DNA of 64,000 nt from NCBI RefSeq assembly GCF_055900595.2, contig NZ_CM148325.1, one strand, 5' to 3'. Below, in pieces: positions 3,231 through 41,944 of the stretch (within the stretch, counting starts at the first letter, position 1; each line of letters begins with the position of its first letter). The notes beneath the pieces are model-generated. The model saw only the letters and a list, made by a program, of their open reading frames with translations, did not search any database and was not told the DNA's origin. Position numbers and translations under genes: made by a program.

Positions 3231-3369
3231 GACCTTTCTCCTTCTGCATCAGCTTCACTTTTTCCAACTCAGCCCGGAATCGACCAGGCTGCTTGAAGCT
3301 GGACAGGAAGCGATCACGTAGTATGTGTTTGTGAATTTTGTCCTGGTAAGGACTGAGTTGTTTTGTCAT
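3223..3369 (-). CDS. Hypothetical basic 48-aa protein between cII and the initiator
   Basis: [18 protein letters not shown]... with AGGAG SD 6 nt upstream; 3-prime end overlaps initiator start. Confidence 0.4.
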
Positions 3370-3403
3370 AATTACTCCTGTGGATTGATCCAGTCTTTCT
3401 ACA

Positions 3404-3682
3404 TCAGGCCTCGAAGAATTCGCCGTTCTTCGGGGCTTTTTCTTTTGTCAGCATTCTGGCTACTTTCTTAGCCAGTTCCGCCAACTCCTCGTCTTCAACA
3501 CCCCATTCAAGAACAGCCAGAAGCATTCCCATTTTTGGGATGAAGCTGTCTTTCCATCGTGAAATTTGCGATTCATTAATCCCTAACGCGTCGGCCACCT
3601 TTCGCTGACCACGTACAGCAATTCGATTTAGGATGTTGCTTGTAATTGCATTCGCTTTCTTGCGAGTACTTGTAAGTTGCAT
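3404..3682 (-). CDS. cII: CII-like transcriptional activator
   Basis: Matches lambda CII core (SQISRWK...[10 protein letters not shown]). Confidence 0.8.
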
Positions 3683-3761
3683 ATGTAAGTATTTCCTTAG
3701 ATAACAATTGATTGAATGTATGCAAATAAATGCATACACCATAGGTGTGGTTTAATTTGAT

Positions 3762-14946: not shown

Positions 14947-15150
<204 letters not shown>

Positions 15151-39080: not shown

Positions 39081-39432
39081 GAATAGCAAAAAAGCGCCTT
39101 TAGGGCGCTTTTTTTACATTGGTGGGTCGTGCAGGATGACTCGCTTCGCTCGCCCTTCGGGCCGTCGCCGCGAGCGGCTCCGTTGTTTCGCTACGCTCAA
39201 CTCGAACCTGCTGCAGGTTCGAATCTTTGAATATCCCAGATAGCAAAAAAGCGCCTTTAGGGCGCTTTTTTACATTGGTGGGTCGTGCAGGATGACTCGC
39301 TTCGCTCGCCCTTCGGGCCGTCGCCGCGAGCGGCTCCGTTGTTTCGCTACGCTCAACTCGAACCTGCTGCAGGTTCGAATCTTTGAATATCCCAGATAGC
39401 AAAAAAGCGCCTTTAGGGCGCTTTTTTTACAT
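39081..39432. repeat. Tandem ~156-bp repeats downstream of the tRNA operon, each with a terminator hairpin and a tRNA-Lys 3-prime-end fragment
   Basis: AAAAAAGCGCCTTTAGGGCGCTTTTTT plus TGGTGGGTCGTGCAGGATGACTCG... repeated with period ~156 bp. Confidence 0.6.
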
Positions 39433-39508
39433 TGGTGGGTCGTGCAGGATTCGAACCTGCGACCAATTGATTAAAAGTCAACTGCTCTACCAACTGAGCT
39501 AACGACCC
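39433..39508 (-). tRNA. lysQ: tRNA-Lys (UUU)
   Basis: 76-nt match to tRNA-Lys, anticodon loop CTTTTAA, CCA encoded. Confidence 0.9.
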
Positions 39509-39640
39509 CTTGCGGGATTATGCTGCTTTAATCATTCAGGATGGTGGGTCGTGCAGGATGACTCGACTTCGTCTCGCCCTTCGGGCCGTTGCTGACGCAA
39601 CGTTATCCTTCACGTTCTCTACCAGTAACCACCTTTAAAT

Positions 39641-39716
39641 TGGTGGGTCGTGCAGGATTCGAACCTGCGACCAATTGATTAAAAGTCAACTGCTCTACCA
39701 ACTGAGCTAACGACCC
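39641..39716 (-). tRNA. lysZ: tRNA-Lys (UUU)
   Basis: Identical 76-nt tRNA-Lys copy. Confidence 0.9.
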
Positions 39717-39862
39717 ATACGGGTGTTACCTGAATGATTTCTACTCGGAACCAATCTTTAAGATTAGTGGGTCGTGCAGGATGACTCGCTTCGCTCGCCC
39801 TACGGGCCGTTGCTGACGCATCGTTATCCTTCACGCTTAACATCTGAGTTTGATGTTAAAAC

Positions 39863-39938
39863 TGGTGGGTCGTGCAGGATTCGAACCTGCGACCAATTGA
39901 TTAAAAGTCAACTGCTCTACCAACTGAGCTAACGACCC
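39863..39938 (-). tRNA. lysY: tRNA-Lys (UUU)
   Basis: Identical 76-nt tRNA-Lys copy. Confidence 0.9.
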
Positions 39939-39941
39939 GAG

Positions 39942-40017
39942 TGGTGGGTGATGACGGGATCGAACCGCCGACCCCCTCCTTGTAAGGGAGGTGCTCTCCC
40001 AGCTGAGCTAATCACCC
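39942..40017 (-). tRNA. valZ: tRNA-Val (UAC)
   Basis: 76-nt tRNA, anticodon TAC. Confidence 0.9.
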
Positions 40018-40068
40018 GATACTGCGCTGGATACTACAAACTACTTCCACCGAACCCACCGTAATTAG

Positions 40069-40144
40069 TGGTGGGTCGTGCAGGATTCGAACCTGCGACC
40101 AATTGATTAAAAGTCAACTGCTCTACCAACTGAGCTAACGACCC
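40069..40144 (-). tRNA. lysW: tRNA-Lys (UUU)
   Basis: Identical 76-nt tRNA-Lys copy. Confidence 0.9.
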
Positions 40145-40146
40145 GG

Positions 40147-40222
40147 TGGTGGGTGATGACGGGATCGAACCGCCGACCCCCTCCTTGTAAGGGAGGTGCT
40201 CTCCCAGCTGAGCTAATCACCC
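40147..40222 (-). tRNA. valT: tRNA-Val (UAC)
   Basis: 76-nt tRNA, anticodon TAC. Confidence 0.9.
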
Positions 40223-40357
40223 GATACTGCGCTGGATACTACAACTAACTAGGTTAGTGGTGGGTCGTGCAGGATGACTCGACTTCGTCTCGCCCTTCGG
40301 GCCGTTGCTGACGCAACGTTATCCTTCACGTTTTACTACCGCTTCCACCTTAGCGAT

Positions 40358-40433
40358 TGGTGGGTCGTGCAGGATTCGAACCTGCGACCAATTGATTAAA
40401 AGTCAACTGCTCTACCAACTGAGCTAACGACCC
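40358..40433 (-). tRNA. lysT: tRNA-Lys (UUU)
   Basis: Identical 76-nt tRNA-Lys copy, promoter-proximal. Confidence 0.9.
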
Positions 40434-40597: not shown

Positions 40598-41389
40598 TTA
40601 CATCGCGTTCAGACGTTTTTGTGCCTGTTTAGCGCCATCAGTACCAGGGTATTTACTGATAACCTGCTGGTATACGGCTTTCGCTTTTGCGGTGTCACCT
40701 TTGTCCTGCATGATGACGCCGACTTTAAACATCGCATCTGCAGCCTTCGGTGACTTCGGATAGTTTTTCACTACCGAAGCAAAATAATACGCCGCATCAT
40801 CTTTTTTACCCTTGTTGTAGTTTAACTGACCCAGCCAATAATTGGCGTTTGGCAGGTAAGTTGAATCAGGGTAATTTTTGATGAAATTCTGAAATGCCAC
40901 CATTGCGTCATCCTGGCGGGATTTATCCTGCACCAGCGCAATAGCTGCATTGTAATCCGTGTTTGCATCACCGCTTTTCACCGGCGCGCCAGCATTCGCA
41001 GTACCAGCATCAGCTGTCGGCGTCGTTGATGCCGCCGCACCGCTATGATCGCCGCTGGTTGATTGCGCCGCTGCACCACCGCTGCTGAGGCTATCGATCT
41101 GCAACAGGATCTGCTTTTGCCGCTCCACGACCTGATTCAGTTGATACTGATTTTCCTGAATCTGACCACGCAGGGAATCAATATCGGATTGATTATCAGA
41201 GAGTTGTTGCTGGAGTTGGGTTAAAAGCTGGCTGTGAGCATTAGAAATACGCTCAAGTTGAGTGACGCGGTCTTCGACCGAGCCTGAGCCGACACTACTG
41301 ATTGGTGCCTGAGCAAAAGCGGCCCAGGGGGCCGCTATACCAACCAGTAACGACAGACTCAATAGTTGATGTCTGAAGTTACTGCTCAT
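40598..41389 (-). CDS. cpoB: Cell division coordinator CpoB (YbgF)
   Basis: Signal peptide, coiled coil, C-terminal TPR; last gene of tol-pal. Confidence 0.88.
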   Translation of the reverse strand: MSSNFRHQLLSLSLLVGIAAPWAAFAQAPISSVGSGSVEDRVTQLERISNAHSQLLTQLQQQLSDNQSDIDSLRGQIQENQYQLNQVVERQKQILLQIDSLSSGGAAAQSTSGDHSGAAASTTPTADAGTANAGAPVKSGDANTDYNAAIALVQDKSRQDDAMVAFQNFIKNYPDSTYLPNANYWLGQLNYNKGKKDDAAYYFASVVKNYPKSPKAADAMFKVGVIMQDKGDTAKAKAVYQQVISKYPGTDGAKQAQKRLNAM

Positions 41390-41398
41390 GCAATTCTC

Positions 41399-41944
<546 letters not shown>

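Follow-up and report, generated by a model that had tools for sequence, protein, structure and literature searches.

Elements ending in tRNA-Lys 3´-end copies in an E. coli lysT operon belong to the tRNA-linked repeat (RtT) family

Five elements that carry additional copies of the tRNA-Lys 3´ end, within and behind the lysT operon, are by sequence comparison members of the known tRNA-linked repeat (TLR) or RtT family of enterobacterial stable-RNA operons and are not new. The explanation that we regard as probable in its entirety is that these are TLR/RtT members, that the modules in the spacers leave the precursor as 3´ trailers and are degraded, and that copies are gained and lost exactly, driven by repeats.

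Results

Extra tRNA-Lys 3´ ends within and downstream of the lysT operon

The window, by which we mean the whole 64,000-nt stretch analysed (contig NZ_CM148325.1 of RefSeq assembly GCF_055900595.2), holds the lysT operon between cpoB and nadA, with a gene order identical to that of K-12 and of strain E200086. Searches with ARAGORN and the Rfam tRNA model detected a cloverleaf with D, anticodon and T arms only in the seven tRNA genes (Table 1), and nothing tRNA-like in the bodies of the elements. The last 18 nt of tRNA-Lys, ATCCTGCACGACCCACCA, occur 10 times at up to two mismatches, compared with 0.01 occurrences expected from shuffles; five of the occurrences are the tRNA-Lys genes and the other five are extra copies. 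Four of the extra copies are exact (18/18) and one has a single mismatch, CCA to CUA (17/18). Identity to tRNA-Lys ends at 18 nt, the 19-mer being found only in the five tRNA-Lys genes, and each copy spans the upstream tRNA from the T loop (AU) to the CCA. All five copies adjoin a common core, ACGGCCCG(A/T)AGGGCGA, with 5 matches compared with 0.03 expected. Three elements lie in spacers of the operon and two directly downstream of lysQ.

A sequence-only reading of this DNA had proposed five such elements besides the seven tRNA genes, three of them in spacers and two in ~156-bp tandem units each with a terminator hairpin, all sharing a GC-rich hairpin-forming sequence. The 18-mer counts, the coordinates and repeats, and the presence of the core in 5/5 elements together with their folds bear this out. 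That reading also had the elements begin with the tRNA-Lys end, which is how they appear on the plus strand; the transcript corresponds to the minus strand, where each GC-rich body comes first and the tRNA-Lys copy last.

Table 1. Positions of the tRNA genes, TLRs, leaders and terminators in the window. Copies are the extra tRNA-Lys 3´ 18-mers; folding energies are in kcal/mol.
Feature	Position	Strand	Copy	Fold	Basis
Seven tRNA genes, 5 tRNA-Lys(UUU) and 2 tRNA-Val(UAC)	39433-40433	minus			ARAGORN, Rfam tRNA matches
Short TLR 1, lysT-valT spacer, 100 nt, directly after lysT CCA	40258-40357	minus	40258-40275, exact	-35.5, z -2.54	Rfam RtT, 60.6 bits
valT leader, 35 nt, after short TLR 1	40223-40257	minus			
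lysW-valZ spacer, 51 nt, without TLR	40018-40068	minus			sequence comparison
Short TLR 2, lysY-lysZ spacer, 98 nt	39765-39862	minus	39765-39782, one mismatch	-32.4, z -3.11	Rfam RtT, 49.6 bits
lysZ leader, 48 nt, after short TLR 2	39717-39764	minus			
Short TLR 3, lysZ-lysQ spacer, 99 nt	39542-39640	minus	39542-39559, exact	-34.3, z -2.76	Rfam RtT, 60.7 bits
lysQ leader, 33 nt, after short TLR 3	39509-39541	minus			
Terminator T1, directly after lysQ CCA, AUGUAAAAAAAGCGCCCUAAAGGCGCUUUUUUGCUAU	39396-39432	minus		-15.3, z -4.6	
Long TLR 1, first 156-bp unit	39276-39401	minus	39276-39293, exact		Rfam RtT, 51.0 bits
Terminator T2, between the long TLRs	39240-39275	minus		-19.1	
Long TLR 2, second 156-bp unit	39120-39245	minus	39120-39137, exact		Rfam RtT, 51.0 bits
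Terminator T3, closes the tandem array, then unique sequence towards nadA	39083-39119	minus		-15.3	

The elements are members of the TLR/RtT family

TLRs, listed by Rudd in 1999 as relayed in PMC8144298, comprise 22 elements at ten K-12 loci, with one to five per locus; their last 18-19 bp are identical to the 3´ end of whichever tRNA or rRNA precedes them, and they have been reported without known function (PMC8144298). The five elements of the window share this location within or after an operon, the 3´-end copy and the common core. All five score above the gathering score of 45 for the Rfam model RF00391 (RtT; Table 1), the 5´ part of the model being filled by the upstream tRNA in the matches of the three short elements. 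RF00391 also has five matches in the K-12 lysT operon, and K-12 orthologues of the elements, in its lysT and valU operons, occupy the lysT-valT, lysY-lysZ and lysZ-lysQ spacers and follow lysQ and lysV; compared with K-12, the window has the same gene order, orthologous elements and a different copy number. The counterparts of both long TLRs in strain E200086 are labelled "RtT sRNA" in RefSeq. Of the five copies, automated annotation picks up only the downstream pair and overlooks the three in the spacers. The sequence-only reading had named ordinary, already-annotated spacers without structure as a finding that would refute it; the annotated part of that description applies (Rfam, RefSeq and the literature), while the lack of structure does not.

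The founding members of the family, the repeats of the tyrT-tyrV locus, score 133-138 bits against RF00391. Reportedly described by Egan and Landy in 1978 as 178-bp repeats, they have a core homologous to that of the lysT elements, copy 18-19 nt of the upstream tRNA end in the same way, and likewise occupy an inter-tRNA spacer as well as following the last tRNA in tandem. The lysT elements differ from them in having Lys rather than Tyr as the partner and in scoring much lower (50-61 compared with 133-138 bits). In addition, the lysT spacer elements have a shorter architecture that lacks the T-arm palindrome, and the long Lys units of E. coli have a degenerate closing stem and their own terminator each.

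We collected 65 distinct related elements from at least 12 genera, in which the core follows tRNA-Lys, Tyr, Arg or Pro. Nearly all carry a 17-22 nt exact copy of their own tRNA 3´ end after the core, with a few degenerate copies matching over 11-15 nt only, and elements linked to 5S rRNA obey the identical rule of a core followed by the host's own 3´ end. The elements of the window align with those of K-12 and of tyrT, and they can also be aligned with the Arg, Tyr and Pro elements (alignments A1 and A2). Decayed tRNA-Lys pseudogenes, or chance similarity, would be a hardly credible source of such elements: they do share 18 nt with tRNA-Lys, to which the long type adds GCAGGUUCGA from the T arm, but the number of copies far exceeds the chance expectation given above and the bodies are not tRNA-like by either tRNA search. 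The same body also stands beside 5S rRNA and the tRNAs for Tyr, Arg and Pro, and in every case it carries the end of the RNA concerned; we rejected this origin.

A closing helix is rebuilt from the host tRNA

Elements of the short type have a ~10-nt inverted copy of the same tRNA segment directly 5´ of the core, which pairs with the direct copy. For the spacer elements of the window, the 5´ strand CGUGAAGGAU of this closing stem pairs with AUCCUGCACG of the copy in 9/10 positions. The core itself consists of three hairpins, GUUGC-N4-GCAAC, GCCC-GNA-GGGC and a third whose sequence varies. Across 25 related elements, 96.5% of the cells of the short-type structure are paired, compared with at most 52% in slid controls. 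In the same alignment, a closing-stem pair is UA, GC or AU depending on the tRNA, and the third hairpin has GC, AU, CG and UA pairs. The closing stem, as aligned, shows covariation with the host RNA among the elements of Lys, Arg, Tyr and Pro tRNAs. The compensatory and G.U changes indicate selection on RNA structure.

Long TLRs are built in the order of a palindrome, UCGAACCUG-CAG-CAGGUUCGA, then the core, then the exact 18-nt copy; the right arm of the palindrome equals the 5´ strand of the tRNA-Lys T stem plus the start of the T loop. For this type 88% of cells are paired, compared with at most 46.5% in slid controls. RNAalifold gave a weak and partly different T-stem-like structure for the long-type alignment (-12.3 kcal/mol). 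The palindromic model fits better than this one, although both use the tRNA-derived strands and are mutually compatible. In the two long elements of the window, the closing stem is largely lost, the outer-stem pairs are non-canonical in cmscan and the fold is not exceptional (z -1.64).

The sequence-only reading had expected acceptor/T-arm-like ends on the transcript. A helix at the tRNA-derived end is indeed present in the three spacer elements, but the copy is paired as one continuous stem, unlike the acceptor/T-arm shape and with the CCA end partly sequestered, and this stem is largely gone from the two long elements. Folding of the lysZ-TLR-lysQ precursor was not informative, since pairing between its two identical tRNAs dominates the minimum-energy structure.

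The sequence of the elements is conserved as well. In the short-type alignment A1, Lys and Arg elements from several genera share 43/90 invariant columns, and a Marinobacterium element is identical to a Pantoea element at 54/56 positions. The core is far more conserved than would be expected of a disposable spacer, which argues for some function. Within E. coli, the TLRs are only modestly less polymorphic than the adjacent leaders, with 11/297 compared with 10/116 variable sites among four strains (p = 0.048).

Two identical units with their own terminators follow lysQ

The two tandem units after lysQ are each 156 bp and 100% identical (39110-39265 and 39266-39421); TRF reports a period of 156 with 2.4 copies. 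Each unit sits between copies of the operon terminator, whose hairpin AAAAAAGCGCCCUAAAGGCGCUUUUUU occurs three times (39083-39114, 39240-39271 and 39396-39427). These hairpins have the form of intrinsic terminators, with GCGCC-CUAAA-GGCGC followed by U6 and z from -4.6 to -5.8, and the sequence is that of the K-12 lysT and valU operon terminators, the one studied in K-12. A consensus scan for promoters and terminators missed these real terminators, their A and U runs being taken up into the stem; they were recognised instead by folding.

TLR number varies by exact gain and loss

The window has three spacer elements and two downstream units, compared with four and one in K-12. The K-12 lysW-valZ spacer is 149 nt long and consists of a 98-nt TLR followed by a 51-nt leader, whereas the window has only the identical leader, a difference of exactly 98 bp. 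Counting only single full-length alignments under an E-value cut-off, since 80% coverage would join pieces across the 98-bp element, we found the lysW-valZ junction contiguous and TLR-less in 3,025/5,426 genomes and TLR-bearing in 2,313/5,426; the downstream unit-to-unit junction was present in 314/5,426. The two-unit tandem of the window is a minority allele. A systematic sample of 60 genomes gave no downstream unit in 29, one in 14 and two in 2, the remaining 15 being left out since their best match lay elsewhere in the operon. Because the unique flank diverges much between lineages, the zero-unit allele was verified directly in two genomes. Exact absence extends further: O157:H7 lacks precisely the lysT-valT TLR and keeps one TLR in the whole operon, and Citrobacter has exact TLR-less spacers at orthologous positions.

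As judged from these alignments, TLR number in the lysT operon is a common E. coli polymorphism of 1 to 5 copies that arises by exact events at the 18-bp repeats. Direct repeats of 18 bp, or of 54 bp with the terminator for the long units, would permit both exact deletion and tandem duplication at the DNA level, and such gain and loss would thus account for the three plus two elements of the window compared with the four plus one of K-12.

Integrases that target tRNA genes leave attL/attR duplications that flank the insert and correspond to the tRNA 3´ end, starting in the T loop. The TLR direct repeats likewise equal the tRNA 3´ end from the T loop, with exact presence or absence, so we considered a relic or active mobile or integrative element aimed at stable-RNA 3´ ends, with the 18-bp repeats as att or target-site duplications and the inverted copy as a terminal inverted repeat. 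The ends do form inverted repeats, and a near-identical core recurs beside host RNAs of five kinds and also in a distant genus. Nevertheless, we judge this origin quite improbable. Unlike att remnants, TLRs have an insert of ~80 nt without an enzyme, a conserved folded RNA and an inverted copy of the target, and they also follow 5S rRNA. The ~80-110 nt between the repeats hold no gene of such an element or relic of one, and there is no integrase or transposase nearby, the neighbours being cpoB and nadA. Escherichia, Citrobacter and Pluralibacter have orthologous 5´ linkers at the lysT-valT TLR, which makes the elements old and loss the simpler account, and the G.U pairs in the stems point to constraint on RNA rather than DNA. 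Searches of phage records gave 3 weak matches, all of them pieces of Salmonella chromosome, and viral-contig matches were mostly chance or at prophage edges, with no convincing phage presence.

The spacer modules probably leave as 3´ trailers

Published work on the K-12 lysT operon describes a transcript of ~1,100 nt, the main one, that stops at the first terminator before the downstream units are reached. The tRNAs are separated by RNase P at their 5´ ends, working 3´ to 5´; RNase II and PNPase take off the trailers, which measure 2-150 nt, and the spacers are cut by RNase E only when RNase P is inactive. Northern blots of wild-type K-12 with spacer probes show few processing intermediates, and no spacer-derived species is named. 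In the literature on sRNAs from lysT spacers, we found nothing beyond PMC4176162.

In the window, each element is a self-folding module co-linear with the operon. Carried over to it, the K-12 data suggest that the spacer modules would be transcribed in the pre-tRNA, leave within the 3´ trailers of Lys pre-tRNAs after RNase P cleavage and then be degraded, a fate taken from the K-12 papers, whereas the downstream modules would be produced only by read-through of T1. The 3´ end of a module may be set by the nucleases that act on genuine tRNA 3´ ends, since that context recurs in the terminal helix and the nucleotides after it. Single modules are likely dispensable.

The elements might instead act in cis as processing or decoy sites, as the sequence-only reading had proposed, with the tRNA-like end and helix recruiting or titrating RNase E, RNase P, 3´ exonucleases or the CCA-adding enzyme and thereby determining in what order or how fast the neighbouring tRNAs mature. 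This is plausible, though on balance we find it doubtful. The copies with their following nucleotides reproduce a real tRNA 3´-end context, structure and sequence are conserved, and the long units repeat the CCA-AUG-terminator arrangement in which RNase P reportedly removes the valU terminator; the authors of PMC8144298 also suggest that RNase E recognises the RrB repeat. However, tRNA separation in K-12 owes nothing significant to RNase E as long as RNase P is there, and rne-1 shows no new intermediates. The partly sequestered CCA and the continuous helix fit poorly with a tRNA mimic, and a given TLR is missing from about half of E. coli genomes, O157:H7 making do with a single one in the operon.

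Action in trans, through released small RNAs like rtT of tyrT or RrA, RrB and RrF of rrn, or through arginine-rich peptides like tpr, seems to us unlikely. The tyrT repeats contain rttR, annotated as a 171-nt sRNA. The rrn TLRs rrA, rrB and rrF share the core AACGUUGC...GCAACGGCCCGGAGGG with the lysT elements and end in a copy of the 5S 3´ end that precedes them. Like the long units of the window, they have a terminator on either side, so that transcription gets to them by read-through, and their processed RNAs bind Hfq and CsrA in vitro via GGA motifs (PMC8144298). In contrast, TLRs of tRNA operons score < 0.01 in the same study's predictor of CsrA binding, and the phenotype once claimed for rtT has been retracted (PMC8144298). 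The wild-type K-12 blots, which name no spacer-derived species, also speak against released RNAs. As for a peptide, each long unit has a candidate 28-aa ORF, MSVAKQRSRSRRRPEGRAKRVILHDPPM, which like that of the tyrT-tyrV repeats is small and arginine-rich and shares its frame and an RPEGR motif with tpr. An arginine-rich frame is expected because the core is CG-rich, however, the ORF starts with TTG or GTG, and the covariation tracks RNA pairing and not codons.

Discussion

The trailer fate that we favor for the spacer modules has a parallel in sRNAs from tRNA-transcript spacers such as 3´ETS-leuZ, which like them arise from external or internal transcribed spacers as by-products of pre-tRNA processing. 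3´ETS-leuZ differs in having a demonstrated sponge function and no tRNA 3´-end copy, and it has no sequence relationship to the lysT elements.

The family combines three features that, taken together, agree with neither a disposable spacer nor the functions described so far: a core that is almost invariant beside five host RNAs, in Enterobacterales and Marinobacterium, a terminal helix that is rebuilt for each host RNA by an inverted and a direct copy of its 3´ end, and the exact loss of single copies in about half of E. coli genomes.

The elements carry little weight as a discovery, having been described in 1978 and 1999, modelled in Rfam and annotated in RefSeq. We entertain, tentatively, that TLRs might be more than passive spacers, namely RNA modules, either under selection or selfish, that some factor would recognise. 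What the analysis does is sharpen an old question, since strong conservation of sequence and fold, with a closing stem that tracks the host RNA, stands beside the lack of a known function in the literature. Through the copy-number polymorphism, natural TLR-plus and TLR-minus alleles are available for tests of function.

The lysT operon elements are tRNA-linked repeats

ARAGORN identified seven tRNA genes in the lysT operon, in the order Lys Val Lys Val Lys Lys Lys. The terminal 18 nt of tRNA-Lys (AUCCUGCACGACCCACCA) are found ten times in the window, compared to 0.01 occurrences expected by chance; five are the ends of the tRNA-Lys genes and five are additional copies, whose match to the gene ends extends no further than 18 nt and which all adjoin a common core, ACGGCCCG(A/U)AGGGCGA. 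The sequence-only reading had described seven tRNA genes, five elements joining a tRNA-Lys 3´ end to a shared GC-rich body, and, after the last tRNA, two tandem units of ~156 bp with terminator hairpins. All of these were borne out, the units being 156 bp long and 100% identical. That the elements 'begin' with the tRNA-Lys end reflects a plus-strand reading, since on the transcript they end with the tRNA copy; the observation was thus right in all particulars save orientation, and the accompanying interpretation was partly supported. Explanations based on tRNA pseudogenes or chance similarity were excluded.

All five elements match Rfam family RF00391 (RtT RNA) at 49.6-60.7 bits, relative to a curated threshold of 45. 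K-12 carries five such matches in its lysT operon and one after lysV, and the founding tyrT repeats reach 133-138 bits. In RefSeq (PGAP) the label 'RtT sRNA' is restricted to the two downstream elements; the three spacer elements are unannotated, likely because their Rfam match takes in part of the upstream tRNA and hence overlaps the tRNA gene. The literature name is tRNA-linked repeats (TLRs), first seen by Egan and Landy (1978) and catalogued by Rudd (1999), as cited in PMC8144298. [quoted passage not shown] Given the RF00391 matches, the RefSeq label and the published TLRs, the lysT-operon elements are an already known feature, the TLR / RtT family in E. coli.

Spacer and downstream elements have different architectures

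Two architectures were distinguished, one for the three spacer ('short') elements and one for the two downstream ('long') elements. The spacer elements are 98-100 nt, begin directly after the tRNA CCA and consist, in order, of a variable linker, CGUGAAGGAU, the core hairpins (GUUGC-N4-GCAAC and GCCC-GNA-GGGC), a third small hairpin, GAGUC and the 18-nt copy, with a leader of 33-48 nt between each element and the next tRNA. Since CGUGAAGGAU is the inverted complement of AUCCUGCACG, the spacer module closes on itself, with folding energies predicted at -32 to -36 kcal/mol (z -2.5 to -3.1). The downstream elements, which are 126 nt and together with the terminator make up the 156-bp unit, each hold one 18-nt copy and are without a good closing strand; their fold is unexceptional (z -1.64), and the outer stem is non-canonical by cmscan. 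Both contain a palindrome with arms that copy the 5´ strand of the tRNA-Lys T-stem together with the T loop, once inverted and once directly; the right arm corresponds to the T-stem 5´ strand and T-loop start. Equivalent palindromes, made from their own T arms, are present in Tyr and Pro elements.

Three copies of the terminator hairpin are present, one following lysQ and one following each 156-bp unit, with folds of -15.3 to -19.1 kcal/mol. None of the three was reported by a consensus terminator scan, because the flanking A and U runs are drawn into the stem at the expense of the U tract; its plus-strand hits were TLR hairpins read in antisense. Small arginine-rich ORFs traverse the elements and read the core in the frame (RPEGR) of tpr, the 'protamine-like' gene that lies within the K-12 tyrT repeats; these ORFs probably arise simply from the CG-richness of the core. 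The table also lists other Rfam matches in the window, among them naRNA4, a family that is presumably REP-repeat-derived.

Positions of lysT-operon features and other Rfam matches in the window
Feature	Position	Strand	Remarks
tRNA genes	39433-40433	minus	seven genes
Additional tRNA-Lys 3´-end copies	start 39120, 39276, 39542, 39765, 40258	minus	18 nt
Spacer elements	39542-39640, 39765-39862, 40258-40357	minus	lysZ-lysQ, lysY-lysZ, lysT-valT
Mutated 18-nt copy	39765-39782	minus	CCA to CUA
Downstream elements	39120-39245, 39276-39401	minus	one per 156-bp unit
Palindrome	39200-39230 and same position in other unit	minus	UCGAACCUG-CAG-CAGGUUCGA
Terminator hairpins	39083-39119, 39240-39275, 39396-39432	minus	AAAAAAGCGCCCUAAAGGCGCUUUUUU
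Small arginine-rich ORFs	39114-39200, 39270-39356, 39536-39613, 40249-40329	minus	MSVAKQRSRSRRRPEGRAKRVILHDPPM; MKDNVASATARRARRSRVILHDPP-
lysW-valZ spacer	40018-40068	minus	51 nt
CpoB/ybgF intergenic RNA thermometer (RF02782)	41360-41498	minus	142 bits; between pal and cpoB
naRNA4 (RF02564)	15000-15070	minus	71.9 bits

The closing strand tracks the host RNA

A scan for the core in one genome per species gave, among the matches listed, at least 65 distinct elements, a total that includes the K-12 and window copies. These matches came from Citrobacter, Enterobacter, Klebsiella, Pantoea, Pluralibacter, Pseudescherichia, Superficieibacter, Serratia, Rahnella, Mixta, Acerihabitans and E. albertii, with Lys(UUU), Tyr(GUA), Arg(ACG) and Pro(CGG/UGG) as host tRNAs. 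Nearly all elements listed repeat the host tRNA 3´ end exactly over 17-22 nt, at a distance of 13-19 nt past the core and starting at (A)AUCC of the T loop; a few degenerate copies among them match over 11-15 nt only. The same pattern, core and then a copy of its own 3´ end, was found for 5S rRNA. The 5´ closing strand changes with the host RNA, being CGUGAAGGAU for Lys, GGGAGGAU for Arg (AGGAGGAU where the tRNA CCC becomes CCU), GGGGAAGGAU for Tyr, AGAGGAU for Pro and GGCAGUU for 5S rRNA.

For the short type, which has three forms of the closing-stem pair and four of the third hairpin, 96.5% of cells are paired versus ≤52% with partners slid, and for the long type 88% versus ≤46.5%, though slid controls only partly remove relatedness and the closing stem varies with only a handful of independent host-RNA switches. 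Some stems stay paired only by way of G.U, which points to constraint on the RNA rather than the DNA. We consider the pairing evidence good but not overwhelming.

TLR-like units were also noted outside Enterobacterales, at a Marinobacterium lutimaris locus (L055, ~3244-3700, reverse-complemented), where two tandem 177-bp units follow tRNA-Arg(CCG). Their core agrees with that of a Pantoea element at 54/56 positions. Complementarity to the T-stem of the same tRNA is seen in the closing strand, CUGGAGGG, but the tRNA end is copied over 11 nt only.

TLR number varies through exact repeat-to-repeat differences

Comparison with the K-12 operon, in line with the reference-genome check proposed in the sequence-only reading, revealed the same family, an extra downstream unit in the window and an exact 98-bp difference, 18-bp repeat to 18-bp repeat, at lysW-valZ. 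Here the K-12 element is missing, and the spacer, 149 nt in K-12, consists of the identical 51-nt leader. Across 5,426 complete E. coli genomes, this junction is contiguous and TLR-less in 3,025 and TLR-bearing in 2,313 (single full-length alignments only; 88 genomes in neither class), a near-balanced presence/absence polymorphism. The unit-to-unit junction, corresponding to at least two tandem downstream units, was present in 314 of the 5,426. A systematic 60-genome sample had 0 units in 29, 1 in 14 and 2 in 2 genomes, with 15 not scored; two zero-unit genomes were checked directly. The 0, 1 and 2 downstream units are accounted for by unequal exchange, with 54-bp repeats of '18-mer plus terminator' as the sites.

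The lysT-valT element is also exactly absent from the O157:H7 genome ECP19-598 (comparison locus L012), whose operon has one TLR and six tRNA genes, one Lys gene being lost; tRNA gene number there shifts together with TLR number, and one valT copy has a G-for-U difference. In Citrobacter, 44- and 30-nt spacers correspond to the E. coli post-TLR leaders, and in Klebsiella and Pantoea three long units stand in tandem. Orthology of the lysT-valT element's linker is recognisable across Escherichia, Citrobacter and Pluralibacter, which indicates that the elements are old and makes exact loss between direct repeats the simplest interpretation. The exact indels and terminal repeats would fit a mobile or integrative origin, but we found no enzyme, no phage or plasmid link and no evidence of gains.

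In the short-type alignment, 43 of 90 columns are invariant between Lys and Arg elements from several genera; judged by this and by the Marinobacterium-Pantoea identity, the core is far too conserved for a disposable spacer. Against this stand the loss of single elements in about half of E. coli genomes and a polymorphism within E. coli that is only ~2.3-fold lower in TLRs than in the adjacent leaders (11/297 versus 10/116 variable sites, p = 0.048). These points, and the puzzling presence of the host RNA 3´ end in each element as an inverted as well as a direct copy, leave room for TLRs as functional or selfish elements, which we regard as rather unlikely. The tRNA-3´-end copies drift and the tRNA genes remain identical; strain AMSCJX03 has another substitution (C to G) in the lysY-lysZ copy.

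Spacer TLRs would be removed with the tRNA trailers

The K-12 operon transcript is ~1,100 nt and ends at the first terminator; RNase P takes off the terminator and then cleaves each tRNA 5´ end in the 3´ to 5´ direction, and the Lys pre-tRNA trailers of ≤150 nt, comprising TLRs and leaders, are removed by RNase II and PNPase (PMC4176162). Spacer TLRs thus would be transcribed, fold on themselves, leave with the trailers and be degraded. The downstream units would be made only by read-through of T1, the first terminator after lysQ, by analogy with the rrn TLRs between T1 and T2, for which synthesis on read-through was shown (PMC8144298). A trans-acting sRNA or tpr-like peptide is suggested only by analogy with rttR, RrA/B/F and the shared RPEGR frame; however, the published wild-type K-12 blots, as described, revealed 'surprisingly few other processing intermediates' and name no spacer-derived species (PMC4176162), and the rtT phenotype was retracted (PMC8144298).

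The terminal helix and the repeated downstream context may allow normal 3´-end nucleases to set the end of the module, as the authors of PMC8144298 proposed for RrB. This idea, hypothetical for the lysT operon, is close to the 'processing site' of the sequence-only reading. For a cis-acting role in processing or as a decoy, which is possible, K-12 genetics offer no support, long-spacer cuts by RNase E being seen only with RNase P inactive (PMC4176162). Collectively, the elements are structured modules of a conserved family whose copy number changes via repeats, and what is specific to this strain is confined to the absence of one spacer element, an additional downstream unit and a single mutated CCA.
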